The notes under the pieces: model-generated
The model's input: the letters and a program-made list of their open reading frames with translations, nothing else
What the model was told of the DNA's origin: nothing
Database searches by the model: none
Position numbers and translations under genes: made by a program
Assembly (NCBI GenBank): GCA_965203355.1
Contig: OZ241889.1
Span: 864,001 to 928,000 of the forward strand
Length of the DNA: 64,000 bases
Source of the DNA: Candidatus Latescibacterota bacterium
Lineage (GTDB): Bacteria; Latescibacterota; UBA2968; UBA8231
Reading direction: 5' to 3'
Shown here: positions 4,206 through 63,940 of the stretch, piece by piece
Numbering within the stretch: position 1 is the stretch's first letter
Layout: each line of letters begins with the position of its first letter

Positions 4206-4614
4206 ATGTCCGCCCGCTTGCTAAGCGAAAAGAAAGCCTTTGTCACCGGCGGCGTCCTTGCGTTAGCTGTATTACCGGGGCGTCCCCGAAAACAACTACG
4301 CCGAACTGTTCTACGACTTTATCCCCGCGTGGATCGCGCCGCAGGACTTAGAGGCCGTCAAGATACTACGCTATCCGATGGTTCAGCTACCGCAGAGTAT
4401 GATCGAGAAGGACGCTGGCGCGTGTGTGGCTTCTTTCTTTAAGGACCAGCGGATGTGGTTGGGGTTTGCCGTGCCGTTCATCTTGCTCAGTCTCAACGCC
4501 CTCAACCAATACTTCCCGTTCGTACCCGGTCCGGTTTTCCTTCTTAAAACATACCTTTGTTTGGCAGATCGAATCGCGTACTTCGCCGATGGGTACTGGC
4601 TGACGAATATGTGA
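4206..4614 (+). pseudogene. Mosaic remnant: SDR N-terminus joined to collapsed pieces of a DUF6785-like membrane protein
   Basis: MSARLLSEKKAFVTGG (Rossmann start), then in another frame ENNYAELFYDFIPAWIAPQD / YPMVQLPQSMIE / FFKDQRMWLGFAVP / GYWLTNM*. Confidence 0.6.
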
Positions 4615-4747
4615 TATTTTGCGCGGATGCACCGCGGTAATGTCATTGTTTGTCAGGTGTCTGGAGCTTTGCTTTGGATAGTCCGATTATTTATAATTTG
4701 AGAACACTGAGATCGTTATAGTACATCGGCGTAAATAGGTTCACAAA

Positions 4748-5934
4748 ATGTCTACGATTACGTCACGACCCAAGATACAACGCTACCATTCGCTTGACTG
4801 CTTGCGAGCCGTCATGATGTTACTGGGTTTGGTTTTTCATTCTTCATTGCATTATTTTCCGGTTCCATACCTCAGGAATCAGATTTATTTGGACACAAAG
4901 ACGAGTGTTTACTTTCAGCACATATTTAGTTTCATCCACAGCTTCCGTATGCCAGCCTTTTTCTTGATTGCCGGGTTCTTCGCGGCCTTTCTGTGCGACA
5001 CGCGCGGGACAAGGACGTTCTTGAAACACCGCCTAAACCGCATAGGTATCCCACTCGCCTGTTTCATGCCCATTCTAACTCCGATAGTCGGTTTATGCGT
5101 ATACTATGCACAACTTTTCACGGTCGGCCCCTTATTTCCCGACCCCAGTTTCAGCTCGATATTTAATGGCCTGTTTATGCATCTCTGGTTCCTGTACCAT
5201 TTGCTAATTCTCTCTGTTGTTGCCGTCCCTGTCAGGAGTCTCATCCGTCGTCTGCGTGCGGATTTACGCGACCGCATACTCAACACCTTCGCACGAATGC
5301 TCTGCCGTCCTTATGGTCTAGTTCTACTAGCCGCAATAAGCGGTTTGACGCTATACCGCATGAAGTATTGGACACTTGACTATACAGGTTCTCCTCTCCC
5401 GCCCCTGCATATTTTAGCTACATACGCAGTATTTTTTATTGTTGGGTGGCTAATTTTCAAACGCCGCGAAGTTCTCGAGGGTTTTAAATCGCGTGCTTGG
5501 GAACATTTTGTCATTGGCCTTGTGTGCCATGGGCTATACCAGTTCTTTTATTTTCAAGGGTATGGAGATGATACCGCAGTTCGCGCTCATGTCCTAGCAA
5601 TGGCCTGTCTGGCCCTGTCGATATGGGCGTTGATTTATGGCTTCCTCGGGTTGTTCTTGCGTTATCTCGACAAACCGAGCCGCTACTGGCGCTACGTGTC
5701 TGACGCTTCGTACTGGATGTATATCATTCATTTTCCAGTAACCATCGCCTTGCCGCCCTCTTTACAGACCTTCCCCTTCCCTCAGGCATCAAGTTCAGCC
5801 TCACACTCATTGGGACAACGGCCATCACGCTGGTCACGTACCATTATTGGGTTCGCGGAACCTTTATCGGCGAAAGGCTCAACGGACGACGCTATCCGAG
5901 GGTGGTGCCGTGGCGAGAAGTCCCTACCACCTGA
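4748..5934 (+). pseudogene. Acyltransferase-3 (OpgC/MdoC-like) membrane acyltransferase with a -1 frameshift near 5758
   Basis: RYHSLD-LRA, HSFRMPAFF-IAGFF, HLWFLYHL and DASYWMYIIHFP motifs. The family-like C-terminus (KFSLT...TYHYWVRGTFIGERLNGRRYPR) is in the -1 frame and stops at 5932-5934. Confidence 0.8.
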
Positions 5935-6335
5935 ATCTGTCGCTGATCAAGTGGGCTGGTGCCCACGGCTGGCCGTACATCGGCCCGACCATTCTCGACC
6001 AGCCCGAAGCCAACATGCGCGGTTGGCTCTTTAAGGGGATTGGCGCGGCCGTGGAGGGCTTTTTAATGTGGGCGCAGCACCGATGGTTTTGGTGGCCTTT
6101 TCACCCGATCGGCTTTGCCATTGCCGTGGGCTGGCTGACGAGTCAGATCTGGTTCTCGGCGCTGATCGCTTGGCTTCTGAAACTGGTCATCCTGCGCTTT
6201 GGCGGGGTGCGTTTGTTTCAGAATGCCAAGCCGTTTTTTCTGGGGTTGATTTTGGGCGAGGTGTCCGTGTCGGGCGTGTGGGGCGCGATCTATGCGATGA
6301 CCGCGGAAAAGGGGCGCTGGCTGACGAATATGTGA
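5925..6335 (+). pseudogene. 3' fragment of a DUF6785/DUF6784-like membrane protein
   Basis: WWPFHPIGF, AWLLKLVILRFGG, KPFFLGLILGE. No credible start; about 135 codons only. Confidence 0.7.
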
Positions 6336-6424
6336 TTTGTGGTTTTATACGGATGCGGCGCGGCTCGTTCGCGCTGGCTACCGAAACGCATTGGGTCGCA
6401 CAGACCGCTAAACGGAGCGACGCT

Positions 6425-6715
6425 TCACATCGCTCCGATTGCGGTGGCCCGCTCTCGGCGCGCCTGGGCAAGTTCATAGCTCGCCTGCATCCGCATCCAG
6501 TGCTCGGCGGTGCCCCAGCCGATGTGCTCCAATGCCAGTGCCATGTTTGCGGACACGCCGGCTTTGCCGTTCAGGAGGCGCGAAATCGTCCCGCGTTCGC
6601 AGCCGAGGTGGGCCGCTGTCTCGGTGACGTTCCAGCCGACCTCTTCCATGTTTTCGCGGATCAGTTCTCCTAGGTGCGGTGGGTTCAGCATGGGTCCAAT
6701 TCGTTCGCTGCTCAT
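6425..6715 (-). CDS. higA: HigA-family antitoxin (HTH)
   Basis: PPHLGELIRE...TISRLLNGKAGVSANMALAL...HWMRMQASYEL; lies downstream of the toxin. Confidence 0.92.
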   Translation of the reverse strand: MSSERIGPMLNPPHLGELIRENMEEVGWNVTETAAHLGCERGTISRLLNGKAGVSANMALALEHIGWGTAEHWMRMQASYELAQARRERATAIGAM

Positions 6716-6734
6716 AGTCGCTCTTCCTTTCCAA

Positions 6735-7007
6735 TCAGTGATAGTCGATTAGGTCCACATCTACGGCCTCGCCGTCCTCGAAGCGGAACACCACGCGCCA
6801 GTTGCTGGATACGCGCACACTCCACTTGCCTACCTGATCCCCCTTCAACGGATGTAGCCGGAAGCCTGGCGAGTCTGCGCTGCCGGGATGTGTTGCCTCT
6901 TGCAGCCGAAACAGGATGCGCCGGAGACGTGGTACCAAGCCTGCTGGCAGCCGTGCCGGGTCGTCCCACTCGTGCAGTGCCCGCAGTCCTTTGTGTCTAA
7001 TCTTCAT
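6735..7007 (-). CDS. higB: HigB-family (RelE/ParE superfamily) toxin
   Basis: IRHKGL...PGFRLHPLKGD...WSVRVSSNWRVVFRF...DLIDYH. Confidence 0.92.
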   Translation of the reverse strand: MKIRHKGLRALHEWDDPARLPAGLVPRLRRILFRLQEATHPGSADSPGFRLHPLKGDQVGKWSVRVSSNWRVVFRFEDGEAVDVDLIDYH

Positions 7008-7015
7008 GGACCTTG

Positions 7016-7044
7016 AATGTGGCGCACAGCGTTACACGCCGCAA
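7016..7044 (-). promoter_or_regulatory. Putative higBA promoter with overlapping imperfect operator palindrome
   Basis: TTGCGG-N17-CACATT on the minus strand; TGTAACGC-TGT-GCGCCACA inverted repeat (6/8) overlapping the spacer and -10. Confidence 0.45.
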
Positions 7045-7229
7045 GTAGGCGATTTGGAGTGCTGCGGTTAGAAGCAGGCGACAGCAGGTCTAGTGTCGTC
7101 ATTTTATCTCTACACTGCTTGGCCGTCTAATTGGGAATAGTTTTTGAATGGGCGCACACATCTCTATATCTTTTTAAATTATTCCGGCAGCGTTGCCGAC
7201 GTGCAGAAATTTCAAAGAAAGGTACGCCC

Positions 7230-9014
7230 ATGAGAACCTTTTCGAGACTTCTATGCCTTTGCCTCGTCTGCGCCGCGTTTACCGCGACTGGCGTTTGGGC
7301 TGAGCCCCCTGCCGACGATGGGGAGGTCGGCAGCCGGAAAATGCCTACGCCAGGTATGGGTGCTATTGTGGAGAGTTCGCCTAGTCTTACGCTACAGGCC
7401 ATGCAGGCGGAATTGACCCGCTCCTTCAGTCTGCTCCAAGAGCAGCCGGTCCCGCCCTACTACCTCAGCTACGAAATCACCGAGACCGAGGCGGTCCACG
7501 TTGGAGCTTCCTTTGGCGCACTGACCTACAGCAACAAATCGCGTCGTCGCCAGCTCGACATTGATCTGCGCGTAGGGGACTATGCTTTTGACAATACGCA
7601 TCAGGTGCGCGGCGTTCCTAGCGATTTCTCCGAACATTATTCAATGATCGAAGTTCCCATTGAGGACGATCCAGACGCCATCCGCAGCGTACTCTGGTAT
7701 CACACGGACAAAAAATACAAGCGCGCCATCGAACAACTGACTACGGTCAAGACCAACGTCCAAGTCAAGGTGGAAGAGGAAGACCAGTCGGACGATTTCT
7801 CCAAAGAGCCAGTCGAGCGCTACGTGGAAGCCCTCGCCTCCTTTGACATCTCCCCCGCCGAATGGGAGACCAAACTCAAAAAATACACAGCGCCCTTCGC
7901 CCCATACGGCGACATTTACGAAGCCGACGCCATGCTCTCGGCCCATGTCTTGACTCGCCAGTACGTCAACAGCGAGGGCAGCGAAATCCAGACCTCGCAG
8001 GTGCTCTATCGCCTGTTCATCTACGCCTTCACCAAGGCCGACGACGGCATGGAACTGCCGCGCTACGAATCCTTCTCGGCCTTTGCCCCGGAGGGCTTGC
8101 CCAGCGACGATGCGGTTCTCGTCTTGGTGGATCGCATGATCGACGACTTGGACGCCCTGCGCACGGCCCCGATAGTGGCTCCCTACACCGGTCCGGCGAT
8201 TCTCTCGGGCCGCGCCAGCGGCGTTCTGTTCCACGAAATTTTCGGCCACCGCATCGAGGGCCACCGCCAGAAGCGCGAGGACGATGGCCAGACCTTTAAG
8301 AAAAAAGTAGGCGAGCAAGTTCTACCCGAGACCTTCTCGGTTTACTTCGATCCCACCCAGACGAGCAGTGCCGACAAGGATCTGGTGGGAGCCTATGCGT
8401 ACGACAATCAAGGGGTTAAAGGGCAACGGGTGGCGGTCATCGAGAACGGGGTTTTCCGCCGTTTCCTCATGTCGCGTTCGCCGATTGAGAATTTCCCCAA
8501 CTCCAACGGCCACGGACGCAAGGAGCCGGGCTACACCCCGGTGGCGCGCCAGTCCAACCTCATCGTCGAGACTTCGGAGCCGCTGCCCCGAGATCAGCTC
8601 AAAGAAATGCTCATTGAACAGTGCCGCATGGAGGACAAGGAGTTCGGGCTCTACTTTGAGGACATCCAAGGGGGCTTCACCATCACGGGCCGCACCATAC
8701 CCAACGCCTTCAACGTGCTGCCCATCATGGTGTACCGCATTTACACCGATGGACGCGAAGAACTGGTGCGCGGCGTTGACCTGATCGGCACGCCGCTCAT
8801 CGCCTTCAGTCAGATCGCCGCGGCTGACGATCAGCCCGACGTGTTCAACGGCATCTGCGGTGCCGAGTCGGGAGGCGTACCCGTGTCGGCGGTCTCGCCT
8901 GGCATTTTCATCTCGCAGATTGAAGTGCAGAAGAAGGAGAAATCCCAAGAGCGCCGACCCATCCTCGAAGCCCCTTTTTCCGAGTCGGCTGAAGAAGCCG
9001 ACGGCCTCCTTTGA
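7230..9014 (+). CDS. TldD-like metallopeptidase with N-terminal signal peptide
   Basis: HEIFGH zinc motif, YDNQGV, SNGHGR, RQSNL, CGAESG-VPVS. Hydrophobic leader ending VWA. ATG at 7230 after AAAGG. Confidence 0.88.
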   Translation: MRTFSRLLCLCLVCAAFTATGVWAEPPADDGEVGSRKMPTPGMGAIVESSPSLTLQAMQAELTRSFSLLQEQPVPPYYLSYEITETEAVHVGASFGALTYSNKSRRRQLDIDLRVGDYAFDNTHQVRGVPSDFSEHYSMIEVPIEDDPDAIRSVLWYHTDKKYKRAIEQLTTVKTNVQVKVEEEDQSDDFSKEPVERYVEALASFDISPAEWETKLKKYTAPFAPYGDIYEADAMLSAHVLTRQYVNSEGSEIQTSQVLYRLFIYAFTKADDGMELPRYESFSAFAPEGLPSDDAVLVLVDRMIDDLDALRTAPIVAPYTGPAILSGRASGVLFHEIFGHRIEGHRQKREDDGQTFKKKVGEQVLPETFSVYFDPTQTSSADKDLVGAYAYDNQGVKGQRVAVIENGVFRRFLMSRSPIENFPNSNGHGRKEPGYTPVARQSNLIVETSEPLPRDQLKEMLIEQCRMEDKEFGLYFEDIQGGFTITGRTIPNAFNVLPIMVYRIYTDGREELVRGVDLIGTPLIAFSQIAAADDQPDVFNGICGAESGGVPVSAVSPGIFISQIEVQKKEKSQERRPILEAPFSESAEEADGLL

Positions 9015-9043
9015 GTCCTCTCCCATCTGGCAGGAGCTATCCC

Positions 9044-10801
9044 ATGTGCAAAAGGTCTTTTATCTGCGTTCTGATGATAGCGTTTTCCGCAGCCCACGCC
9101 GAAGACGACGTTTTGCAGCGCGCCCTGCGCGATGAATTGGTGCGCTCAATGCAGCAACTCCAGCTCGAAGAGCTAGAGCAGCCCTGTTTCATTTCTTACC
9201 TCGTGCGCGAAGTAAAGTCCAAGAGCAGTTCGGCGACCTTCGGCAGCTTGCTCAGCAGCGACGAGGTACACGTGCGCGAACTCAGCGTTGAAGTGCGGGT
9301 CGGCGACTACGCGCTCGACCATACTAGTTTCCGCCCGTTTTCCTTCGACGGTACGGGTGTGGTGCGGATGTATGGGGGCGTTATGCAACTGCCCCTTGAG
9401 GACGACTACGACGAGTTGCGGCGCAAGATCTGGTTGGCTACCGACGGTGCCTACAAGAAGGCACTCGAAGATTTGGCGAGGAATCGCGCTACTTTGAAGG
9501 ACAAACCCTGCACCGAGGGAATGCTCGATTTCAGCAAAGAGGAGCCAGCCACCCAAGTAGAAGAAATGGCGCCCGTCGTCTTGGAGCTCGACGCGCTGGG
9601 GCAGCGTATGCGCCAGCTCTCGGGCCTGTTCCGCGAGATGCCTGACATCTACACGTCGCGAGTCCGGATCAACGGGTCCAACACTTCGATCCGCTACCTC
9701 AATAGCGAAGGCTCTTCCTTCTCCCGCACGAGTTCGGCGTTGACCTTCACCGCGGTCGCCGCTACCCAAGCTGCCGATGGGATGCCGCTGGAGGATTTTG
9801 TCGCGGTGTACGCCCGTTCACCGGAAGACCTGCCCAGCGACAGCGAGCTGGCCGTGCGGATCCATGCCATGGGCGATCGTCTGAAGCAGCTACGCCAGGC
9901 ACCGCTGGTTGAGCGCTATACTGGCCCGGTGATTTTCTCGGGCCAAGCGGTTACGGAACTGTTCAACCAGGGATTTGTGCCGTCCCTGCTGGCGACGCGC
10001 CGAGTGCTGTTCGGCGATCCGCTATACGAATACTACCCGCAGAGGAAGGAAAATCCGTTCCTCGACAAAGTTGGCGTGCGCGTCCTGCCCGAATTTCTCA
10101 GCGTGCGTGCCGCGCCGCTCATGGATGCTTATAAAGATCAGCCCTTGTTCGGCGGCTACCGAGTTGATGACGAAGGCGTTCCGGCGCGCCCGGTTCACTT
10201 GGTGCAAGAGGGTGTTTTGGAGACCTTGCTGACGACGCGTACGCCTGTGCGCGGCATTGACCAGAGCACGGGCAGCCGCCGCGGTCCGGGCGTCGCTCCC
10301 AGCAACATTTTGGTCGAGGCGGAGAAGGGCCTGAGCGAAAAGGATATACGCAAGGAATTTTTCAAGCTGATCAAACGGCAGCAAAAACAGTACGGCTATG
10401 TCGTTACTCGTATTGCCAACTCGTCGTACGAGGTTGCTGACTCTGAGGTTATGTATTTTTTTCCCGACACCGACCCCGACGAGGGCAAGCTGGCAAACGC
10501 GATCTCCGTCTATAAAGTCTATCTCGATGGCCGCCAGGAACTAGTGCGTAACGCGGAATTTGCGGGCATTGGTCTCTACACTTTCAAGGACATTGTGAAG
10601 GTGTCCAATACGCATGAGGTCAACACTGTTCCCTTTCGCTCGGAGGACAATTTTTCGCCTTTTTACGGCGATCCGGGAAGCGAAATTCCCGTGAGTATTG
10701 TCGCACCTCGCATGGTCTTGTTTGAGGATATTACGCTCAAGCCGCCGAGCGGCGAGATTCCCAAAGCGCCCGTGTCCGTGCATCCCTATTTTGACCAGTG
10801 A
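9044..10801 (+). CDS. PmbA/TldE-like non-catalytic partner with signal peptide
   Basis: Paralogous to the upstream gene (RVGDY, YTGPVI, DDEGV, PSNILV) but no HExxH. Leader ends AHA. ATG at 9044 after AGGAG. Confidence 0.82.
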   Translation: MCKRSFICVLMIAFSAAHAEDDVLQRALRDELVRSMQQLQLEELEQPCFISYLVREVKSKSSSATFGSLLSSDEVHVRELSVEVRVGDYALDHTSFRPFSFDGTGVVRMYGGVMQLPLEDDYDELRRKIWLATDGAYKKALEDLARNRATLKDKPCTEGMLDFSKEEPATQVEEMAPVVLELDALGQRMRQLSGLFREMPDIYTSRVRINGSNTSIRYLNSEGSSFSRTSSALTFTAVAATQAADGMPLEDFVAVYARSPEDLPSDSELAVRIHAMGDRLKQLRQAPLVERYTGPVIFSGQAVTELFNQGFVPSLLATRRVLFGDPLYEYYPQRKENPFLDKVGVRVLPEFLSVRAAPLMDAYKDQPLFGGYRVDDEGVPARPVHLVQEGVLETLLTTRTPVRGIDQSTGSRRGPGVAPSNILVEAEKGLSEKDIRKEFFKLIKRQQKQYGYVVTRIANSSYEVADSEVMYFFPDTDPDEGKLANAISVYKVYLDGRQELVRNAEFAGIGLYTFKDIVKVSNTHEVNTVPFRSEDNFSPFYGDPGSEIPVSIVAPRMVLFEDITLKPPSGEIPKAPVSVHPYFDQ

Positions 10802-11184
10802 GCAGGCCCGGAATGTTTATGCAGCGGTCCCAATTTATTAGAGGCACAACCACGATTTTTGGTGAGTGCGTCCGGGTCGGTGGAAAAACGCCTAAAGTAG
10901 CCCTCGCGTTGCCTAATCGAAGCCGACTTATTCGCTGTGAAACAACAAGAGAAATTGCGATTAGCCTGTCTCGTAGTCTATACAAAAATGTAGCTCTACA
11001 CGGACAAGCTCTGTGGGATTCTCGTACTTTGGAACTAGTCGAGTTCAAGGCGACACAAATCGCCAACCAGACATATTATTCGCCGGTGAAAGCCCTCGAA
11101 GAGATTTCTGAATTAGTAGGAGATCTATGGAAAGACACCGACGTCATTGACTTTGTTAATGAGATTCGTTCGGAAGGTACTTAG
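10798..11184 (+). pseudogene. Low-GC hypothetical protein, probably a C-terminal fragment
   Basis: Open 128-codon frame overlapping the upstream stop (GTGA), no RBS, GC drop at about 10.8 kb. Confidence 0.45.
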
Positions 11185-50003: not shown

Positions 50004-50048
50004 GCGACACTCGGAAATCGTTTTGTCGTTTCCGGCGGACTGAACACC

Positions 50049-50615: not shown

Positions 50616-50702
50616 GCCGACCGAATATAAATTGTCCCTATCTATTTACCAATGCACCGACCATTCGGTCGGCGCAGACACCCTTTGCATACGGAGGAAA
50701 TC

Positions 50703-51662
50703 GTGAAACTAGCCACGTACTCTGCGGCTGGCGAACAGCGCGTGGGCGCCGTCGTTGGCGACGACAATATCGTCGTGGAGCTCGCTGCGGCCGACCGCGC
50801 ACTGGCCCGCAAGGAAAAGCGCAAAGCGCATCCCTTTTTCACCGACATGCTGACCCTGCTCTCGGCCGGTGCCAAGGGCCTGAGCGCCGCCAAAAAAGCC
50901 GCCGCGAGCGCCGCAGATAAAGAACCCAACGGCAAAACGATCCACGCCCTCAGCAAGGTCCGCCTCCGCGCCCCCATGCCCAACCCGCGCAAGGTCTTCT
51001 GCCTGGCCGGCAACTACCAAGACCACATCGAAGAGGGCGGCGGCAAAATGGATGCCCAAGACAAGGAAACCCCGCGCGTCTTTATGAAGCCGCCGACGAC
51101 CACCGTCATTGGCCCCGGCGACCGCATCCTCATTCCCCCGATCGCCAATAGCATCGACTGGGAAGGGGAGTTGGCCGTAGTCATCGGCCGCAAGACCAAG
51201 GGCGTCAAAGCCAAGGACGCGCTCCGATACGTGGCTGGGTACACCGTTATGAACGACGTCTCCGAGCGCGAGTTGCTCATCAAGAAGCGCACCGATAGCC
51301 GACCGCGCGACGAGTGGTTCGACTGGCTCAACGGCAAATGGCTCGACACCTTTGCCCCGCAGGGGCCGTGGATTGTCACGGCGGACGAGATCAAGGACCC
51401 CCAAGCCCTCGACATCAGCACGTACATCAACGGGAAGCGCAAACAACACAACAACACCGGCCAGATGCTCTACCCGGTCGACAAGATCATCGAGTACATC
51501 TCGGCGATTATCACCCTAGAACCGGGCGACCTGATTAGCACCGGTACCATCTCTGGCGTCGGCGCGACCACCGGTACTTTTATGAAAAAGGGCGACAAGG
51601 TCGAAATCGAAATCTCTGGGATCGGCGTACTCAAAAACTCGGTTGCTGCCAGCAAGAAATAA
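50703..51662 (+). CDS. Fumarylacetoacetate hydrolase-family protein
   Basis: GNYQDH, FMKP, DWEGEL, NDVSER, GK-LDTFAP-GP, LEPGDLISTGT; GTG after GGAGG. Confidence 0.93.
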   Translation: MKLATYSAAGEQRVGAVVGDDNIVVELAAADRALARKEKRKAHPFFTDMLTLLSAGAKGLSAAKKAAASAADKEPNGKTIHALSKVRLRAPMPNPRKVFCLAGNYQDHIEEGGGKMDAQDKETPRVFMKPPTTTVIGPGDRILIPPIANSIDWEGELAVVIGRKTKGVKAKDALRYVAGYTVMNDVSERELLIKKRTDSRPRDEWFDWLNGKWLDTFAPQGPWIVTADEIKDPQALDISTYINGKRKQHNNTGQMLYPVDKIIEYISAIITLEPGDLISTGTISGVGATTGTFMKKGDKVEIEISGIGVLKNSVAASKK

Positions 51663-51665
51663 CCC

Positions 51666-54047: not shown

Positions 54048-54379
54048 GCTTGCTCATTTTAGACCCCGAGCAGAAGCAGTTTTTCGACGACAATGGCTAT
54101 CTGCTACTCAAGGGCTTTTATGGCCCGGCCGAGATGGAGCAGATGCACGGCGAGTTTCATCGCTTGGTGACCGAGATCGAAAACCGGCCAAAGAACGTCA
54201 AATACTCTTTTATGGACGCGCCGGAAGGCTACGCGCCCGACCCCTTCAACCCGCGCAATGTCGTCGGCCTGAACAAAACCGCGGCCACCATCGACCAATG
54301 GGGCAACGCTTGCGCCTTTGCTGGCTTGCCGCTGGCTCGCAACGGCCAGCTTCTGATGCCGCGCGTTTATCAGGGATGA
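54044..54379 (+). pseudogene. PhyH-family gene with catalytic core deleted
   Basis: N-terminus QFFDDNGYLLLKGFY is intact, but only 111 aa and no HxD/H. Confidence 0.7.
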
Positions 54380-54440: not shown

Positions 54441-56360
<1,920 letters not shown>

Positions 56361-56397
56361 GCACCGGCGACTTTTCAACCCAATAGAAAGAGAAGGA

Positions 56398-57390
56398 ATG
56401 GACAAAATTCGCGTGGGATTTATCGGCTGTGGTGGAAATGCCAGCGGGCATATAGGTCGGGTACTCGACATCCCCGAAGCGGAAGTGGTGGCTTTGTGCG
56501 ATGTAGATCCGGCCAGTTTGCAACGCGCCAAAGATCGCAACGCGCGGGCGGCCGAGTTGCCGGAGTTTACCCACTACCAAAAGATGCTGGAGCAAGTCGA
56601 ACTAGACGCGGTAGAAATTTCCACGCCGCACACATTGCACTTTGAGCAGATCGTGGCTGCGCTGGACAAAGGACTACACGTGCTGACCGAAAAGCCGATG
56701 GTTTGCACTGTCGATCACGCGCGTCAAGTTATCGCCAAAGCAAAGGAGGCCGGCAAGATTTTGATGATCTCCTATCAGCGGCACTTGCAGGCGCAGTACC
56801 GCTATGTGCGCAATCAGATCGCGGCCGGGGAACTGGGGGATATCCAGTTTATATCGGCGCTCCAAGACCAGAAGTGGTATCAGGGGACGCTTGGGCTGTG
56901 GCGGCAGCAAATGGCGCTGTCGGGCGGCGGACAGCTCAACGACTCGGGCAGCCACCTGCTGGACATCGCGCTGTGGATGACCGGGCTGGAGGTGGCCGAA
57001 GTGCAGGCCTACATGGAGTATTTCGACTCCGAGGTGGACATTAACTCGGCACTGTCGCTGCGCTTTCGCAACGGCGCACTGGGGACGATTGCGGTGGTGG
57101 GCAACTCGCCGACCAGCGGGATATGGGAGGACATTACCATCTGGGGGACCAAGGCCGTGGTCTATATTCGCCAGGGAGCGGTTTTCTACAAGACGCAGCA
57201 CAGCAACGCGGTGTACGAAGTAAACAACTTGCCCGGCTCGACGACGCCCGACCAGAACTTCATCGACGCGATTCTCGGCCGCGACCAAGTGCAGGTGCCC
57301 CCCGAATGCGGCCTGCGAGTCATTGAATTAACCGAAGCGGCGTGGGCCGCGGCCGCTGGTGGGCAGCCGGTCAAAGTAAAAAGCATTTGA
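56398..57390 (+). CDS. Gfo/Idh/MocA oxidoreductase
   Basis: GFIGCGG, HVLTEKPM, GGGQLNDSGSHLLD. Confidence 0.93.
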   Translation: MDKIRVGFIGCGGNASGHIGRVLDIPEAEVVALCDVDPASLQRAKDRNARAAELPEFTHYQKMLEQVELDAVEISTPHTLHFEQIVAALDKGLHVLTEKPMVCTVDHARQVIAKAKEAGKILMISYQRHLQAQYRYVRNQIAAGELGDIQFISALQDQKWYQGTLGLWRQQMALSGGGQLNDSGSHLLDIALWMTGLEVAEVQAYMEYFDSEVDINSALSLRFRNGALGTIAVVGNSPTSGIWEDITIWGTKAVVYIRQGAVFYKTQHSNAVYEVNNLPGSTTPDQNFIDAILGRDQVQVPPECGLRVIELTEAAWAAAAGGQPVKVKSI

Positions 57391-57416
57391 CATGATTCTA
57401 CGGACTTTGTCATATT
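57387..57416 (+). promoter_or_regulatory. sigma70-type promoter of the intergenic RNA
   Basis: TTGACA-N18-CATATT with extended -10 TG; TGACA...TGTCA inverted repeat overlaps it. Confidence 0.6.
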
Positions 57417-57422
57417 AAAATT

Positions 57423-57723
57423 TAAGACGGGTTCGGGGGTCTAAAGCCTCTGTTGCCGCCCCGCCGAGGCCCGAGGCTACGCGAGCGGGCCAGCCCGGCT
57501 TTGTAATTGGCCGCAACGACGCGCAGAGTTGGAGTATGGATATGAGGCGCGCACAAGCGAAAGGAGGTGGTCCATTGAGTAGTAATTGTACCGCAGGGAG
57601 GTTGATCACTTGATCAACTCCAGGTGATTAACTACCTGGTCAGGAGCATTGTCGCTTCGGCGATATAGCTTCTGAGAGTACAGCCGGGCGCGCCCCACCT
57701 TAGAGGGTGCGCCCGGTTTTTTT
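57423..57723 (+). ncRNA. Candidate structured RNA / small-ORF transcript of unknown family
   Basis: Own promoter and terminator; four-way junction with a cUUCGg loop; GAAAGGAGGTGGTCCA complementary to the 16S rRNA 3' end. Confidence 0.6.
57683..57723 (+). terminator. Intrinsic terminator
   Basis: GCCGGGCGCGCCC / GGGTGCGCCCGGT stem ending in a T7 run. Confidence 0.9.
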
Positions 57724-57789
57724 GTCTGCGCTGTCCTAAGTTGGTTTCCACGCGGCATTTTTGCCATATTGTCCACGAGGAGGCCGTCT

Positions 57790-58761
57790 ATGAAACGCAT
57801 CGCCAAGCCCGCCGGGGCCTACAACATTTTGGTGGAAGAGGTCGAGGTTCCGGCGATTGCTCCGACCGAGATTTTGATTCGCGCTCAGTGTTCGTTGATA
57901 AGCCGTGGTTCGGAGATTTGGCGGCGCTACGTGCGCGAAGAGGCGATTGATCACCGCATGATGGGCTATTCGCTGGTGGGTCGGGTCGCAGAGGTCGGTG
58001 CGGAGGTCGCGGAGTTCAAAACCGGCGATCTGGTCGCGGCTCTCGCACCGCACGCTGAGTACGCAGCGGTCGAAGTCGTAGCCAGCCAGCACAAGCCGGC
58101 GGTCGTGCGCCTGCCAGCGGGTATGTCGCCCGAAGCGGGTACCTTCTGGCCGCTGGCAACCAGCTCGGTCCTGTGGATGTGGGAGACCGAGGCCGGGCCG
58201 GACGATGTCATGGTCGTCCAAGGGCAGGGTTTAGTCGGTAGCGGCTGTATGCAGGCGGCCAAAGCACAGGGGGCCGGGCGCGTCATTGGGATCGATGCTG
58301 TGCCTTTGCGATGCGACTTGGCGCACGAGTTGGGAGCCGACGCGGTGATAGATGCCAGCAGTGGTGACCCTGTTGCCCAAGTTTTGGAACGGACGGAAGG
58401 CGCAGGTGCCGACATAGTGGTCGAAGCGGTGGGTGGGCGGGCCGGGGCGCGGGCTTTTGCCGAGGCGCAGGACATGCTCAAGCGCGGTGGCCTCTTACAA
58501 GTGCTGGGCCTGTACGAAGACGAGCCCCTGCCGCTCTACTCGGGCAAAATCATGGGCAAGCGCCTCATCGGTAGCTATCTCGACGCCAGTCGGCGGCCCG
58601 AAGGGTCGGCACGTGCGTTAGAACTGCTGGCTGCGGATCAAATCCAATTTGCCAAGATGATTACCCACCGCTTTCCCTACGCCGAGGCTGCCGCCGCTTT
58701 CGACTTGCTCTACCATCGGTTGGGCGAGGCCATGGCGGTGTTGTTAAGGTGGGACAACTAA
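57790..58761 (+). CDS. Medium-chain (zinc-binding-type) dehydrogenase/reductase
   Basis: SLISRGSE, MGYS, GQGLVG, GADIVVEAVG, MITHRF. Confidence 0.88.
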   Translation: MKRIAKPAGAYNILVEEVEVPAIAPTEILIRAQCSLISRGSEIWRRYVREEAIDHRMMGYSLVGRVAEVGAEVAEFKTGDLVAALAPHAEYAAVEVVASQHKPAVVRLPAGMSPEAGTFWPLATSSVLWMWETEAGPDDVMVVQGQGLVGSGCMQAAKAQGAGRVIGIDAVPLRCDLAHELGADAVIDASSGDPVAQVLERTEGAGADIVVEAVGGRAGARAFAEAQDMLKRGGLLQVLGLYEDEPLPLYSGKIMGKRLIGSYLDASRRPEGSARALELLAADQIQFAKMITHRFPYAEAAAAFDLLYHRLGEAMAVLLRWDN

Positions 58762-58775
58762 CTCGGGAGACGACG

Positions 58776-59477
58776 ATGAGTAGAACCATAGAAAAGCTCT
58801 TTCGCGCCCCCTATGGGGTGCCCAATGCGCTGCAAGTAGTAGAAGAAGGGCTGTGGATTACCGACCAAATTACCGACCGGGTGGCTCTGATCGAAATCGC
58901 CGAGCCGTCTGAATACGGCGTAACCCGCCTGATCCGCGATATTCCCAGCGAGTCGTCCAACACCAGTGGCATGGCTTGGGGCGGGGGTTCGCTATGGCTG
59001 GCGGCCAATGGGGCGAGTACGCTCTGGCGACCCTCGCGGCCCACGGACGCCGCGCAAGGGGCCGGCGAAATTTTCGAGGTTGATCCGGCCACTGGCGCGA
59101 CCCGCAATCGCTATCCAGTGCCCGGCGGAGGTGGGGTACATGGGATGGAGTACGATCCGTTTGAAGAGGGCTGCGTGTGGATCACCACTCTCAAGAGCCA
59201 GACGCTGAGCAAAGTCAAGATCGCTGGCTGGTCGGTCGAGCACGTGCTGGGCTTGCCCTACGGGCGGGCGCACGGCGTGGTGCGGGTCGCCGATGGCATC
59301 TGGGTGGTGCATACGTCCGACCGCGCGATCGTCAAACTCGACGTGGAGAGCGGAGCCGAGTTGGATCGAGTCGTGGTGCCCGACAGCGACCCCCAGCCGC
59401 ACGGCCTGTCGATTTTTGGCGAGGATTTGCTCTATTGCGACGCGGCCTCTGGCTGGGTCGTCAAGATCGGTTTGTGA
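58776..59477 (+). CDS. Beta-propeller protein (Vgb/glutamine cyclotransferase-like)
   Basis: Repeated blades PNAL, SGMAW-GGSLW, HGMEY, HGVV, PHGL. Confidence 0.6.
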   Translation: MSRTIEKLFRAPYGVPNALQVVEEGLWITDQITDRVALIEIAEPSEYGVTRLIRDIPSESSNTSGMAWGGGSLWLAANGASTLWRPSRPTDAAQGAGEIFEVDPATGATRNRYPVPGGGGVHGMEYDPFEEGCVWITTLKSQTLSKVKIAGWSVEHVLGLPYGRAHGVVRVADGIWVVHTSDRAIVKLDVESGAELDRVVVPDSDPQPHGLSIFGEDLLYCDAASGWVVKIGL

Positions 59478-59494
59478 GGTGAGGGGTGAGCGGC

Positions 59495-59974
59495 ATGGCA
59501 AGAAAGTACTGGCTCGTCAAGTGCGAATTCGACGAGTGTTCCTTTGACGAGTTAAAGCAGCGGCCGCAAAGCACGGGTTACTGGCGAGGGGTGCGCAACT
59601 ACCAAGCGCGCAATCTCATCCGCGACAGCATGGCAAAGGGGGAGCTGGCGTTCTTTTATCAATCCAGTTGCGCCGAGCCGGGGATCGCCGGAATCGCGAC
59701 GATTACAAGAGCAGGGTACCCCGATCCCAGTCAATTCGACGACCAGCACCGCTACTACGACGAAAAATCCACGGTCGCCGACCCGCGTTGGTTTTCCTTT
59801 GACGTGAAGTGGAAACGCAAATTCAAACGGTTTGTCCACCTCGCCGATCTCAAGGTCAACGACAAGCTCGCCGACATGAAAGTGGTGCAGCGGGGTCAGC
59901 GGCTCTCGATCCAGCCGGTTGCCGAGCAGGAGTGGAGGGAAGTCTGCAAGATGGGCGGCGTTAGCCCGACGTGA
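59495..59974 (+). CDS. EVE-domain protein
   Basis: YWLVK-E, WRGVRNYQARN, FFYQS, YPDPSQFD, RLSIQPV. Confidence 0.93.
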   Translation: MARKYWLVKCEFDECSFDELKQRPQSTGYWRGVRNYQARNLIRDSMAKGELAFFYQSSCAEPGIAGIATITRAGYPDPSQFDDQHRYYDEKSTVADPRWFSFDVKWKRKFKRFVHLADLKVNDKLADMKVVQRGQRLSIQPVAEQEWREVCKMGGVSPT

Positions 59975-60091
59975 ATGATTCGCCTGGGTTATCCAGTTCG
60001 CAGGCCGAGCCGAGGCCTGGACACCCGAAGAAAACGGCGGAGCGTGGGCTGCAACGCGATCAACGTGGTATTCAACTGAAAGGACTGAAGC

Positions 60092-60931
60092 ATGGAGTTG
60101 CTGCCGACGACTAATGCCGACGGGCGCGACGTCATCCCGATGAGCGAGGCCCAGCGGTACCGCTTCGATCTCAAGGGATTTATCCTCTTGCCCGCGCTGT
60201 TGAGCGAAGAAGAGCTAGTGTCGATCCGCGCTCACCAAATGAAATTTCTCTACGAGCGCGAGTCCCTGCCGCCGGATGAGCGCGACAATCACGGCGGCCC
60301 GTCGCAGATTTTGCTCGACCACCCAGCGGTAGTGGGCGTGCTCAACGAAGTGCTCTCGCATCAGGCACTGGCCAGCGAAGACTGCTACGGATTCCGCTAC
60401 GATCACACCTATACCAGCCATCGCCAAGCCGGACACGACAACTTCCGTCCGCACGGCGGCGGCGGGTACTTCAACTTTCGCGGCAGCTCGCACATCTACC
60501 AGATGCAGCCGGGCAAGGTGCATGCTGGATTGACGCGAGTTGTGTGGGAGCTCAACGAAGTCGGCGCGGGTGACGGGGGTACGCTTTTTCTGGCGGGCAG
60601 CCACAAGGCCGCTTTCCCTCGACCCGAAGAATTGAGCCAGCGCGACAGCTCGCTGTGGGAGAGCTACACCTGTCCAGCCGGTTCGGCGGTGATTTTCACC
60701 GAGGCCCTGTGCCATTCGGGTACGCGTTGGATCAACGAGCAGCGCGACCGGCTGAGCTTGTTCACTTGCTACGACACCGTCAATTCCAAGTGGGGCAAAG
60801 GGTGCCCGTCCGCCGAAGTGATCGCCTCGTTTCCCGCGAAGCGCCGCACGCTCTTCCGGGGCGTGTGGCACGGGATGAGCGACGTGCCCGGCATCAACAA
60901 ATACTACGAAGCAGCCAACCAAGCCGTTTGA
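60092..60931 (+). CDS. PhyH-family Fe(II)/2OG enzyme
   Basis: FDLKGF, GGTLFLAGSHK, PAGSAVIFTEALCHSG. Confidence 0.85.
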   Translation: MELLPTTNADGRDVIPMSEAQRYRFDLKGFILLPALLSEEELVSIRAHQMKFLYERESLPPDERDNHGGPSQILLDHPAVVGVLNEVLSHQALASEDCYGFRYDHTYTSHRQAGHDNFRPHGGGGYFNFRGSSHIYQMQPGKVHAGLTRVVWELNEVGAGDGGTLFLAGSHKAAFPRPEELSQRDSSLWESYTCPAGSAVIFTEALCHSGTRWINEQRDRLSLFTCYDTVNSKWGKGCPSAEVIASFPAKRRTLFRGVWHGMSDVPGINKYYEAANQAV

Positions 60932-60950
60932 CGCGACGAAAGAATTCTGC

Positions 60951-63677
60951 ATGAGCCAAACAGTTCTCTTCCTGCTCGATGGGATGGCCCTCGTCTATCG
61001 GGGTCACTTCGCGATGATCCGCAATCCGCGTATGACCTCAAAGGGCGTGAACACGTCGGCCGTTTTTGCTTTTGCCAACACCTTGCTCTCCATCGTCGAA
61101 AAGGGCGAGCCGACGCACATCGCCGTTGTCTTCGACACGCCTGAGCCGACGCACCGGCACCGCAAGTACGAAGAGTACAAAGCCCAGCGCGAGGCGATGC
61201 CCGAGGACCTGAGCCAAGCCCTGCCGTACGTATTCCGGCTCTGCGAGGCGTTTAACATCCCGGTTTTGCGCGAGCCGGGATGGGAGGCCGACGACGTGAT
61301 CGGCACGTTGGCCAAAAAGGCCGAGGCCGAGGGGTTTGCCACGTACATGGTCACGCCCGACAAGGACTACGGCCAGCTCGTTTCCGAGCGGAGCTTTATG
61401 TACAAGCCGGGCCGCGGCGGCGATGAGGCCGAGGTTTTGGGGGTGCCGGAGATTCTCGCCCAATGGCAGGTCGAGCGGATCGACCAAGTGATCGACGTGC
61501 TGGGGCTGATGGGCGACTCCTCGGATAATGTGCCCGGCGTCCCCGGGATCGGCCCCAAGACAGCGCGAAAGCTCATCGCCGAGTACGGCAGCATTGAAGC
61601 GTTGCTGGCGCACACCGATCAGCTCAAAGGCAAGCAGAAACAGAACGTAGAGGAATACCGGGAACAGGCTCTGCTCTCCAAGGAGCTAGTTACCATTGAG
61701 TGCGATGTGCCATTGGACGTGGGGCTGGCGGATTTGGCGAAAAAGGAATGGGATCGCCAGAAATTGGCGGCTCTCTTCTCCGAACTCGAGTTCAATACGC
61801 TGGGGCGGCGGCTCCTCGGCGACGAGTTTAGCGTTGAAAAGGATCCGGTCCACGGCCCGCTCAAAGGGGTGGCGGATGTGGAGCACGCCTATCAGCTCGC
61901 TGATACGCCCGACAAGCGGCAAGCGTTAATCGAGGCGCTGCTGGAGCAGCCGGCGTTTTGCTTGGACTGCGAGACTAACGGCCTCGACGTCCGGCAATGC
62001 GACTTGATTGGCTTGGCGTTTTCGTGGGCACCGGGCACGGGCCACTACGTGCCGCTGCCTAGGGAGCGGGCCGAGGTGCTGACCGTTTTAGAGGAATTCC
62101 GCCCGGTATTTGAAGGGGAAGTGTGCGAAAAAATCGGCCACAACCTCAAGTACGATCTCAGCGTCCTCCGCTGGCACGGTATGCGGGTGGAGGGACCTTT
62201 CTTCGACACGATGCTGGCGGCGACCTTGGCCGAACCAGAGCTAAGACGCAGTATGGACGAACTGGCCAAGAGCCTGCTCTCCTACTCGCCCAAACCCATA
62301 TCTGAGCTGATCGGCGAACGCGGTGGTGAGCAGCTGACGCTCTTGCAGGTGCCACTGGAGCAAGTGGCCGAGTACGCCTGCGAGGACGCGGACATTACCT
62401 TTCAGCTCGCCGCGGTGCTGCGGCCGAAAATAGAAGCCATGGATCAGCAGCGCGTTTTTTACGAGATCGAAGCTCCGCTGCTGCCGGTGCTGGTAGATAT
62501 GGAATACGAAGGCATCCGCATGGAAGGCTCGGCCTTGGCCGCGCTCTCGCGGCAGTTTGAGGAGGCCATTGAGCGGGCCAGCGAGCGCGTCTTTGCGCTC
62601 GCCGACGAGCGTTTTAACCTCAATTCGGGCAACCAGCTAGGCACCATTCTCTTTGAAAAGCTCGGGCTGGATCCCAATGCGCGGCGGACGCAAAAGACCG
62701 GCCAGTACCAAACCAGCGAACAGATCCTGCGCCGGCTGGCCAATCGCCACGAAATCGCGCAGCAGGTACTCAACTACCGATTGCACACCAAGCTCAAGTC
62801 AACGTACGTCGATCAGCTACCCAGCGCGGTCTTTAAGGCTACGGGGCGCATCCATACCAACTACGAGCAGCTAATGACTGCCACCGGGCGCATGAAATCC
62901 GACCGCCCGAACCTACAGAACATTCCCATCCGCAGCGAGCAGGGGCGGGAAATCCGCCGTGCCTTTGTGCCGCGCAGCAGTGACTATCTGCTCTTCTCGG
63001 CTGACTATTCGCAGATCGAGTTGCGGATCGCGGCGGCGCTCAGCCGCGACGAGGGGATGTTGGACACCTTCAACAGCGGCGGCGACATCCACTTGGCTAC
63101 GGCCGCAAAGATCTACCAAGTCGCAGAAGATCAAGCGACGCCCGAGATGCGGCGTCAGGCCAAGACGGTCAACTTCGGCATCATCTATGGGATCTCGCCC
63201 TTTGGACTGGCCGAGCGGCTCGATATTTCACGCGGGCAGGCCGCCGAGTTAATCAAGCAGTACTTCGCCCAGTATCCAGGGGTGCGGCACTATCTCGACG
63301 AGACCGTGGAGTTCGCCCGCGACAAGGGCTACGTCGAGACGGTGACCGGGCGGCGGCGCTATCTGCGCGACATCAACTCGCGCAATGCTACCACACGCAA
63401 AGGAGCCGAGCGCAACGCAATCAATACCCGCATTCAGGGCACGGCCGCGGATATGATTAAGCTGGCGATGAGCCGCATTCACCGGCTGATTCGCGAGCAG
63501 GGGTTCCGCTCGGCGATGCTGTTACAGGTCCACGACGAGTTGGTTTTCGACCTGCACCGAGACGAAATGGAGACCCTGCCGCCGCTAGTGGCGCGTGCGA
63601 TGCGCGAGGCCCTGCCCTTGGAGGTGCCGATAGAAATCGAGATGGGCACCGGCGAGAATTGGCTGGAGGCGCATTGA
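60951..63677 (+). CDS. polA: DNA polymerase I
   Basis: 5'-3' exonuclease (EADDVIG, GDSSDNVPG), 3'-5' exonuclease (DCET), DYSQIELR, KTVNFGIIYG, QVHDEL. Confidence 0.98.
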   Translation: MSQTVLFLLDGMALVYRGHFAMIRNPRMTSKGVNTSAVFAFANTLLSIVEKGEPTHIAVVFDTPEPTHRHRKYEEYKAQREAMPEDLSQALPYVFRLCEAFNIPVLREPGWEADDVIGTLAKKAEAEGFATYMVTPDKDYGQLVSERSFMYKPGRGGDEAEVLGVPEILAQWQVERIDQVIDVLGLMGDSSDNVPGVPGIGPKTARKLIAEYGSIEALLAHTDQLKGKQKQNVEEYREQALLSKELVTIECDVPLDVGLADLAKKEWDRQKLAALFSELEFNTLGRRLLGDEFSVEKDPVHGPLKGVADVEHAYQLADTPDKRQALIEALLEQPAFCLDCETNGLDVRQCDLIGLAFSWAPGTGHYVPLPRERAEVLTVLEEFRPVFEGEVCEKIGHNLKYDLSVLRWHGMRVEGPFFDTMLAATLAEPELRRSMDELAKSLLSYSPKPISELIGERGGEQLTLLQVPLEQVAEYACEDADITFQLAAVLRPKIEAMDQQRVFYEIEAPLLPVLVDMEYEGIRMEGSALAALSRQFEEAIERASERVFALADERFNLNSGNQLGTILFEKLGLDPNARRTQKTGQYQTSEQILRRLANRHEIAQQVLNYRLHTKLKSTYVDQLPSAVFKATGRIHTNYEQLMTATGRMKSDRPNLQNIPIRSEQGREIRRAFVPRSSDYLLFSADYSQIELRIAAALSRDEGMLDTFNSGGDIHLATAAKIYQVAEDQATPEMRRQAKTVNFGIIYGISPFGLAERLDISRGQAAELIKQYFAQYPGVRHYLDETVEFARDKGYVETVTGRRRYLRDINSRNATTRKGAERNAINTRIQGTAADMIKLAMSRIHRLIREQGFRSAMLLQVHDELVFDLHRDEMETLPPLVARAMREALPLEVPIEIEMGTGENWLEAH

Positions 63678-63940
63678 GGGGTACAAGATGACCGAATACT
63701 CATCGGCTAAAAAAATCAAGCTATCGTCCGATGTTGTGAGCGACGCGTACCAGTTGACGCTGGACGAACTGACGCGCCCGCGGCAAACGGAACACAGTCT
63801 CAGTATAGATCGCGCCTTTCCCGAGGAATTTGTCAACGATCTTTCCCGTCAGGAGGTGTTCAACAAACATCTCTTTCGTCCAAAATAGAAATGGGTACCG
63901 ACGAGAATTGGTTGGCCGAGTACTGAGGGGTGCAGGCTGA
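63636..63940 (+). repeat. Diverged 56-bp direct repeat of the polA 3' end (63636-63691 and 63885-63940)
   Basis: 43/56 identical by hand alignment; IEMGTGENWLEAH* versus IEMGTDENWLAEY*. Confidence 0.88.
63688..63888 (+). pseudogene. 5' fragment of a gene resembling DUF1156-type DNA methylases
   Basis: IDRAFPEEFVNDLSRQEVFNKHLFRP is cut off at the second polA repeat. Family recalled from memory. Confidence 0.5.

Follow-up and report, generated by a model that had tools for sequence, protein, structure and literature searches.

Repeated gene ends beside accessory cassettes in a Latescibacterota bacterium suggest turnover by homology-facilitated illegitimate recombination

Introduction

A 64,000-nucleotide stretch of DNA from Candidatus Latescibacterota bacterium (contig OZ241889.1, positions 864,001 to 928,000; hereafter the window) contains three places at which accessory cargo lies between the 3' end of a host gene and a second, diverged copy of that same end. 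The host genes are polA, a creatininase-family gene and a gene for a DUF6785/DUF6784 membrane protein. Comparison with relatives suggests a model whereby small restriction-modification, toxin-antitoxin (TA), nuclease, helicase and acyltransferase cassettes come and go at short intergenic positions behind core genes, and whereby homology-facilitated illegitimate recombination (HFIR), followed by deletions at microhomologies, best explains the window. We consider these two statements, taken jointly, to be probable. They rest on the repeats themselves, on empty and filled versions of the same sites, on arrays, on one joint with microhomology, on the absence of integrases and on contigs that support the junctions.

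Since HFIR displacement, long target duplication and segments attributed to illegitimate recombination are already in print, we class the finding as a known process. Its setting is new: the anchors are housekeeping-gene tails, the cargo is mixed, and the uncultured phylum has few recombinases. It illustrates at the sequence level how an uncultured, integrase-poor lineage still exchanges restriction, TA and accessory genes.

Results

The ends of three host genes are repeated beyond their cargo

The window polA protein is 95% identical in amino acid sequence to that of a Latescibacterota chromosome locus (L001), and about 28 related loci were recovered. The closest relative, genome G001, is collinear with window positions 1883-63884 at 85-94% nucleotide identity. 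Genome-scale tests were run on such relatives (G001 and others), not on the window's own genome.

The original prediction described a host 3' end, cargo and a second copy of the end at three loci, and all three peptide pairs are present in the places it named. polA ends at 63636-63677, with a second copy (IEMGTDENWLAEY and a stop) at 63885-63923; WLTNM and a stop occur at 4597-4614 and 6318-6335; and the creatininase gene ends in LSFPTD and a stop at 48586-48606, with LSFPAD and a stop at 50023-50043. The significance of each pair was judged from its ungapped local alignment score (+1/-1), using 200 shuffles and 644 empirical opposite-strand controls. The polA pair (63634-63691 against 63883-63940; 45/58 nt) scores 32, compared with a maximum of 13 in the 200 shuffles, and 0/644 controls reach 29. 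The DUF6785/DUF6784 pair consists of 20 exact nt (4596-4615 and 6317-6336) with a diverged continuation of about 22 nt, to 4637 and 6363; it scores 21 against a shuffle maximum of 15, and 1/644 controls reaches 20. Both pairs are far above chance. The creatininase pair (14/16 nt, score 12) is not above chance inside the window, with a shuffle mean of 11.7 and 297/644 controls reaching 12. We accept this repeat as real on the strength of relatives alone, in which an empty site and clearer repeats are found.

Chance similarity, or an assembly that had fused strains, would produce pairs of this kind, and the creatininase pair, at background within the window, is what such an account can point to. 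It does not extend to the polA pair, which exceeds all controls, or readily to the DUF6785/DUF6784 pair, whose score level is reached by 1/644. The same architecture is found in relatives, including records titled as whole chromosomes. Moreover, assembled contigs (rather than raw reads) from another sample (run X3) and from other studies (X4 and X5) cross 48606/7, 50022/3, 63684 and 63884 with zero differences. These contigs cover 48203-51524, 48162-48759, 48757-52658, 49976-52414, 56019-64000 and 63544-64000, and differ from the window nowhere; the X3 contig runs on for about 2.5 kb past the window end. Because contigs from other samples and studies bridge them identically, the window junctions are not assembly chimeras, and the earlier concern over a strain-chimeric assembly is allayed by this independent support. 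We therefore give hardly any weight to chance or chimerism.

The description of the pattern as window-wide was overstated. Mapping the variable segments of the window against four relatives (G001-G004) yielded about 13, and a repeated gene end occurs at only three. The ends of nine other bordering genes, among them tmRNA, score no higher than background (10-14); no tail repeat was found for tmRNA, hyuA, EVE, Ldh_2, MR_MLE, pmbA, hyuB, GH32 or SDR.

Empty and filled sites behind polA

The window polA gene (60951-63677, plus strand; Pfam DNA_pol_A and related domains) carries the native form of the tail, the left repeat copy spanning 63634-63691; the WLEAH ending occurs in 28/28 Latescibacterota-type relatives. 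The cargo behind it (63688-63884, plus strand) consists of the 5' 200 nt or so of a gene for an N6_N4 DNA methyltransferase of about 700 amino acids, a truncated restriction-modification cassette with 84-92% identity to the gene start in nine relatives. The full-length proteins of L001 and L002 match Pfam N6_N4_Mtase, and a NotI-like endonuclease adjoins in L001. Next comes the diverged polA tail stub (63883-63940, plus strand), with flank homologous to that of a stub in L002: window 63903-63998 is 84% identical to L002 14906-15000, upstream of a GIY-YIG/DUF7508 gene.

The core neighbours downstream of polA are a beta-eliminating lyase and then an amidohydrolase. The polA-lyase spacer is empty in six loci (L009, L012, L013, L016, L019 and L027) and filled in eight, by two types of restriction-modification cassette. 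Type A (L001, L002, L005, L010, L021 and L025) has the methylase of about 700 amino acids, with or without the NotI-like endonuclease, and type B (L006 and L020) has a NotI-like endonuclease and a D12 methylase, with an additional DpnII-like gene in L006. In L001, L005, L021 and L025 the type A cassette rejoins the spacer about 70 nt into it, without a stub, and type B cassettes leave the spacer whole. A polA stub is present only in L002 and the window, in both cases preceding the flank that leads in L002 to the GIY-YIG/DUF7508 gene. Some joints at polA thus fall in the spacer, with a loss of about 70 nt, some at the stop and some within polA itself (-27 in L002 and about -45 in the window).

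In L002 the switch from the methylase cassette, known in the same form from L021 and L025, to the polA tail falls on 7-8 nt that both contain, TGAGAAC(T). Past this joint the endonuclease gene is gone, and the stub consists of the final 27 nt of polA. The window joint falls some 200 nt inside the methylase gene and some 45 nt short of the polA stop, and is therefore a separate event. Among 46 proteins downstream of polA in 17 loci there was no integrase or transposase. An IS4/5 transposase fragment lies in L002 some 8 kb off, past the lyase. The motif AGGG follows the stop at both polA and creatininase and is not shared by the DUF6785 site.

An acyltransferase segment inside a broken DUF6785/DUF6784 gene

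At this first locus a host end, cargo and a second copy are all present as proposed, but the first copy ends a broken pseudogene and not an intact gene. G001 has an intact gene of 639 amino acids carrying DUF6785 and DUF6784. In the window its 5' part is full of deletions, the degraded remnants at 4284-4557 (plus strand) being 85-93% identical to the G001 gene with gaps of 440 and 149 nt, and 757 nt of the middle are replaced by an acyltransferase segment. The left tail copy (4596-4637, plus strand), recognised by local alignment to 6317-6363, comprises the last 20 nt with the stop and about 22 nt of diverged post-stop sequence; the relative G060 has a 91% match to window 4596-4642. The foreign segment spans about 4638-5933, and the final 100 nt or so of the acyltransferase open reading frame (ORF; 4748-6034, plus strand; Acyl_transf_3, Pfam 4.6e-31) are host-gene sequence. 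The 3' 404 nt of the host gene, with the DUF6784 domain (Pfam 5.7e-30), and the right repeat copy at 6317-6363 occupy 5934-6363 (plus strand) and are 90-94% identical to five relatives. The acyltransferase segment is missing at this locus in G001-G004. Among 75 family genomes there was no copy of the cargo above 75% identity, only partial matches at 69-75%, and no donor-like arrangement.

The adjoining stretch, 6338-10798, holds two unannotated ORFs and a TldD/PmbA-type pair, all missing in G001. The pair (7184-10805) is present in G002 and G003, and the difference looks like a deletion in G001 and not like cargo of the window.

Cassettes and stubs behind the creatininase gene

The creatininase-family core gene (47674-48606, plus strand; Pfam 6.5e-67) bears a cargo-linked tail of the TAG type. 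Cassette A behind it is a truncated UPF0175 antitoxin gene (48625-48780, plus strand; Pfam UPF0175 7.3e-13, profile positions 3-44 of 75) encoding 52 amino acids, compared with 88 in the full-length homologue at L104. Cassette B is an ORF of 406 amino acids with a PD-(D/E)XK region (48783-50003, plus strand; PDDEXK_4, Pfam 5.8e-05) and is common to G001, G003, G056 and G062 at 77-82% identity. A terminal stub (50024-50043, plus strand) repeats the creatininase tail in its TGA type; the equivalent stub is an exact repeat of 19 nt within G001 and of 17 nt within G062. In the window it lies 5 nt from the stop of the convergent right-hand neighbour, a hexapeptide-transferase core gene (50049-50615, minus strand; Pfam Hexapep). 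The antitoxin and the polA-site methylase (about 200 nt of about 2.1 kb) bear out the earlier statement that cargo is cut mid-gene.

We compared this location at 21 sites, calling stubs by blastn-short at E up to 0.05. In G002 and G061 the segment 48605-50023 is entirely missing and the tail, with TGA, joins the right flank directly where the window has 48607-50023; about 6-10 nt separate the creatininase and hexapeptide-transferase stops at these empty sites. The right flank is kept at 19/21 sites (exceptions G059 and G003). Stubs occur at 7/21 sites, one or two at each, plus the weak one in the window, and measure 17, 19, 34, 38-41, 43 and 128 nt. Both the window and G001 have cargo and then a stub of 17-19 nt. 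The order in G052, G056, G060 and G062 is antitoxin cassette, stub of 38-41 nt and more cargo, with a terminal stub as well in G062. There are two stubs in G003 (34 and 43 nt) and a single one of 128 nt, at 98% identity, in G059. At E up to 0.05 no stub was detected beside the cargo of G036, G041 and G004, and distant relatives have short spacers. Tandem accretion of cassettes at this site is supported by these arrangements. In G052 the UPF0175 gene runs on and is then followed by the stub; the window has lost this stub at a GAT(TA) microhomology, truncating the antitoxin. Other copies of the UPF0175 cassette (L104, L105 and L106) showed no convincing stub of the adjoining gene.

On its right, every creatininase stub finishes with the stop codon or 0-3 nt past it; on the left the ends differ. 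The functional stop is TAG in 11/11 cargo-bearing close relatives and TGA in 2/2 empty sites, and TGA is also found in the terminal stubs. This pattern fits a functional creatininase end that travels with the cargo as a donor-type anchor, although the linkage may alternatively stem from shared ancestry of the TAG alleles. As had been anticipated, cargo is gained and lost among relatives at these sites with no integrase nearby.

Direct repeats of the target around cargo without other mobility genes are also expected from active insertion with long target duplication, in which the cassettes, many of them coding for nucleases (restriction enzymes, PD-(D/E)XK and GIY-YIG), insert themselves via staggered, filled-in breaks and so duplicate 17-450 nt of target. 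In the accessible parts of their paper, Furuta, Abe and Kobayashi (2010; PMC2853133) describe restriction-modification genes without other mobility genes that are flanked by target repeats of tens to hundreds of bp, mostly in competent species, one repeat overlapping a gene 3' end. To be counted there, a case had to have both an R and an M gene inside the insert, a repeat above 30 bp, an insert below 20 kb and no other mobile element. Our data agree in several respects. The polA-site cargo is restriction-modification, the window polA repeat is 58 nt (diverged) around an insert of about 0.2 kb, the creatininase repeat of G059 is 128 nt and mobility genes are absent; the repeat lengths of 27-128 nt (perhaps about 430 nt at the first locus) lie within the published range, as far as its accessible text gives it, and many different cargo left ends share a single position just past the creatininase stop. 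However, a self-inserting unit is expected whole, whereas here cargo is truncated at the stub-side joint: the window polA insert is a 200-nt methylase fragment, and the L002 insert, its endonuclease deleted, has no R gene and a repeat of 27 nt. Most restriction-modification insertions at polA lack a duplication, the TA and acyltransferase cargo is without a nuclease, and cargo other than restriction-modification and multi-stub arrays set these sites apart. Fill-in would also give identical copies, but left and right copies differ in allele type (TAG and TGA). We regard this explanation as unlikely.

A recombination scheme for the observed scars

In the HFIR scheme that we favour, cassettes would arrive on DNA of relatives already carrying a cassette behind the same core gene. 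One end would be secured by homologous recombination inside the core gene, and the other by an illegitimate joint to the resident chromosome at little or no homology. Where that joint fell downstream of the resident stop, some of the spacer would be lost; where it fell within the last 17-450 nt of the resident gene, that piece would be left over as a stub following the new arrival, which would itself be cut at the joint. Repeated events would stack cassettes with stubs between them. Homologous recombination via both flanks would spread or remove whole arrays, and microhomology-mediated deletions would erode them. We infer the order of events, the uptake of DNA and the enzymes involved.

If correct, such a scheme accounts for the variable stub lengths, the seamless native flank, the truncated distal cargo, the loss of spacer without a stub, the split between TAG and TGA, and the stacking, and it requires no integrase. 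Indeed, cargo is truncated on the stub side (window methylase, window UPF0175 and L002), and secondary deletions at short homology are documented. The proposal of one homologous anchor and one illegitimate joint is thus consistent with the variable left ends of stubs, the truncated cargo and the single joint of 7-8 nt, but most polA-site cargo has no stub. A Campbell-type single crossover of a circularised fragment was also considered; it explains a fixed right and a variable left end, needs tiny circles (about 250 nt at polA), and is subsumed under HFIR here without being claimed.

Several observations, together with the genome-scale scan below, weigh against the HFIR scheme. Only one joint, that of L002, is cleanly resolved with convincing microhomology, the others being without an uninterrupted donor for comparison. 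The two sequences at the window polA joint have at most 3 nt in common, and the creatininase-site joint of G059 contains about 15 nt of filler. The window polA stub, ending in DENWLAEY and a stop, deviates at four residues from a near-invariant tail: among 29 more distant polA loci, 23/29 are identical to the native tail of the window and none has any of the four substitutions. Since the 28 close loci all end in WLEAH and the distant ones lack the substitutions, the stub is not a resident end that functioned recently. Its divergence, at about 22%, also exceeds that of the adjoining methylase fragment (about 8% from relatives), so that it must be older than this neighbour and a history of several steps is needed. 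At least eight different sequences abut the creatininase stop within 0-3 nt, and HFIR makes no new left junctions; this constant left junction may reflect a site preference. Since the spacer between the convergent genes is so short (about 6-10 nt), selection is a sufficient explanation of the junction, if not a proven one. Finally, ComEC and DprA are present in 5/5 relatives and also in 10 and 11, respectively, of 14 control genomes, and are therefore uninformative on competence.

Frequency of 3' stubs outside the window

The original prediction went further and proposed a distributed acquisition route in this lineage. We scanned two arbitrary 400-kb samples of relatives (G001 1.0-1.4 Mb and G002 3.0-3.4 Mb) with 615 gene calls, at a score of at least 18 and with whole-gene duplications excluded. 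A 3' end was repeated downstream six times, compared with six for a 5' end upstream, five for a 3' end upstream and five for a 5' end downstream, and the opposite-strand controls gave one and one. Because 3' stubs are no commoner than the mirror controls, the strong claim fails by the refuting condition that the prediction had set for itself; these 800 kb contain no genome-wide or 3'-specific excess. On inspection most of the matches were tandem duplications or paralogues with shared termini, and only one was clean: in the G002 sample, a DMFA2_C-family gene, an antitoxin-like ORF and a PIN toxin are followed by a 43-nt stub with a stop. Elsewhere, such scars amount to roughly one per several hundred genes, and the window is unusually rich in turnover sites.

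The raw 800-kb scan was dominated by tandem paralogue arrays, and was therefore filtered. Chief among these is a tandem array of near-identical genes of about 2.1 kb with small companion ORFs in G001 (C1, about 1.046-1.073 Mb; L115-L116). A first scan, of 885 gene ends from the fetched loci, had given 10 downstream repeats at a score of at least 20 against 3-8 in controls; it was set aside as a biased set full of orthologues.

Few recombinases, and an Rpn-like unit

No match to integrase, resolvase or classical transposase families was found with Pfam among the 47 window ORFs. The claim that the window has no integrase is upheld to that extent, but it does hold one mobility-type element, an Rpn-like unit. 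Tyrosine recombinases (PF00589) number 3-4 per genome in G001-G005 (19 in total), with none in the syntenic regions; three form groups that recur in all five genomes, as judged from E-values and open-frame lengths and not from alignment. Serine recombinases (PF00239) are present in 0/5 relatives, and 12/14 control genomes have resolvase-type members.

These counts bear on the possibility that the repeats are attL/attR cores of decayed or trans-mobilised site-specific elements (CIME-like elements or satellite islands), served by a tyrosine recombinase located elsewhere or lost. As in integrative elements, the repeats contain the stop codon and restore the gene; the tandem arrays resemble accretion at a single att site, and the creatininase repeats have a constant right boundary. 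Yet there is no integrase at any examined site of any relative, and a supply of 3-4 tyrosine and no serine recombinases per genome (five genomes) is small. Repeat lengths and joint positions vary between events at one site, leaving no constant att core, the microhomology joint of L002 falls inside a cassette gene, and the three sites share no motif. We find this origin very unlikely.

The Rpn-like unit (27264-28331, plus strand), a multi-copy element for a putative nuclease/transposase, is the only mobility-type gene of the window and stands outside the stub pattern. It is a precise insertion of 1068 nt, without target duplication, encoding a protein of 303 amino acids; the site is uninterrupted in G002 and G004, and each relative genome contains 5-18 matches to the family. 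The protein scores 26.2 bits against TIGR01784 (cut-off 52.1), in its C-terminal part only, and has no Pfam match at E up to 10. Its Atlas neighbours fall in Rpn/DUF4351 clusters at 0.97, and serve as leads only. It contains a four-residue repeat, (EQGI)n, encoded by a 12-nt tandem repeat at 28078-28122. According to the accessible parts of two papers, RecA-independent horizontal transfer has been the subject of work on the Rpn proteins of E. coli (PMC5350276), and rpn genes encode toxic nucleases that act against phage and vary in their four-residue repeats (PMC10400941). One could imagine a recombinase-independent, lineage-typical route in which Rpn-like PD-(D/E)XK nucleases make the joints, cassettes stack behind stops and the creatininase site is truly preferred. 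Such a route would be a functional integron without an integrase; we hold it to be improbable, and the part assigned to the nucleases is pure speculation.

Relation to known systems

HFIR has reportedly been demonstrated experimentally in Acinetobacter, Streptococcus and Pseudomonas, in work attributed to de Vries and Wackernagel in 2002, Prudhomme and colleagues in 2002 and Meier and Wackernagel in 2003. Those studies are said to have found one homologous anchor, one microhomology joint of a few nt and a variable loss of resident DNA. Compared with these experiments, HFIR is deduced here from scars alone.

For type VI secretion system (T6SS) effector-immunity modules and for orphan arrays of Rhs and contact-dependent inhibition (CDI) systems, sequential displacement by HFIR has been proposed, with an explicit analogy to integrons (Kirchberger et al, 2017; PMC5361080). 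As described in the accessible parts of that paper, those arrays resemble ours in having a conserved upstream anchor, a module inserted beside it, an older module and 3' remnants pushed downstream, and no integrase. In contrast to the T6SS and Rhs cases, the anchors here are housekeeping genes (the creatininase family, polA and the DUF6785 membrane protein) and not toxin loci, the cargo is mixed (restriction-modification, TA, nuclease and acyltransferase) and the remnant is a stub of the anchor, not a selected immunity gene. As for the integron-like acquisition route put forward for this DNA, nothing points to dedicated machinery, and the idea had already been published for the T6SS arrays. 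The likeness to integrons lies in the newest-first stacking of promoterless-looking cassettes behind a fixed point. Unlike integrons, the window ORFs and the syntenic regions of G001-G005 hold no IntI-type match, and the joints are scattered and cut through genes; cassette borders here are copies of host gene tails, attC-like structures not having been searched for.

In a study of E. coli, S. aureus and S. pyogenes, homology-assisted illegitimate recombination was proposed as a source of small strain-variable segments for which known mobile elements do not account, about 10-18% of them flanked by direct repeats (Touzain et al, 2010; PMC2884548); the accessible parts of that paper do not describe gene-tail stubs or arrays. 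A literature search of limited coverage returned no description of the pattern in Latescibacterota, nor of illegitimate recombination in defence hotspots. Stubs record the order of acquisition, and could serve to mark cassette histories in metagenome-assembled genomes and to reveal integrase-free hotspots missed by island predictors. Conversely, truncated extra gene ends are easily misread as attachment sites.

Other variable segments of the window

The 47 ORFs of the window were scanned with Pfam, NCBIfam and PADLOC. Core genes include GH32, hydantoinase A and B, IlvD, BamA/TamB, QueC/E, MetRS and polA. Among them lie accessory genes for a BREX/DISARM-type helicase fragment, the acyltransferase, a Schlafen/AlbA_2 protein, a 1644-aa type ISP enzyme, a type II methylase, an AAA ATPase, a Mokosh-like helicase with a DUF559 nuclease beside tmRNA, the UPF0175 antitoxin fragment and the PD-(D/E)XK protein.

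The direct attachment of cargo to host stops, also proposed earlier, is a mixed case: the overlaps exist, but several are secondary deletions. The type ISP / IIG restriction-modification enzyme (12589-17523, minus strand; Pfam Type_ISP_C and related domains; PADLOC REase_MTase_IIG, 2049 bits) forms a variable islet downstream of hyuA. The islet is present in G001 and missing at this site in G002 and G003, and G004 has a copy elsewhere. The ATGA overlap between hyuA (17520-19619, minus strand) and this gene is real, but alignment with G001-G004 indicates that it arises from an 11-nt deletion at the hyuA 3' end, after which the frame reads on into a TGA that overlaps the ISP start, and not from direct attachment of cargo; G001 has a normal hyuA stop about 30 nt ahead of the same ISP start. 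Overlaps of the ATGA type can thus stem from small deletions and not from designed couplings. The GTGA overlap at the stop of a pmbA/tldD-family gene is present as described, the joint lying exactly at the GTG start codon of a small accessory gene in the ORF list (10798-11184, plus strand). Its G001 version has its own ATG, an AT-rich leader and a different junction, and a short shared motif, TGAG, is present at the joint. Consensus scans of the short spacers from host stop to cargo start found neither promoter nor terminator, a result too weak to support read-through transcription.

Remnants of accessory genes persist in relatives. G004 (L076) retains 40 nt of the type ISP gene 3' end beside the hyuA stop, and G001 (L070) retains the first 64 nt of the AAA ATPase gene at the equivalent of window 23918-23981. 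Because of these remnants we take islets to be lost by imprecise deletion.

The first gene of the window, cut by its edge, is an SNF2 helicase gene of low GC (46%; 3-1823, plus strand) with matches to BrxHI/II and DrmD models; it is missing here in G001 and G002, and is probably part of a BREX/DISARM-type island running off the window. Downstream of the tmRNA 3' end (tmRNA at 34053-34412, minus strand), 29734-34052 contains a Mokosh-like SF1 helicase with a DUF559/MTES_1575 nuclease (30083-33235) and a low-GC stretch. This segment is missing in G001 and present in G003, and neither a tmRNA tail repeat nor an integrase was found at it. A PhyH-family gene is shorter in the window, where an in-frame stretch of 447 nt (149 codons) that each of the five relatives has is missing at 54272/54273; an ORF at 54044-54379 is left. 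Lastly, 44722-44812, between minus-strand genes, carries two 30-nt copies (97% identical, 61 nt apart) of a GC-rich hairpin-like sequence of which relatives have one.

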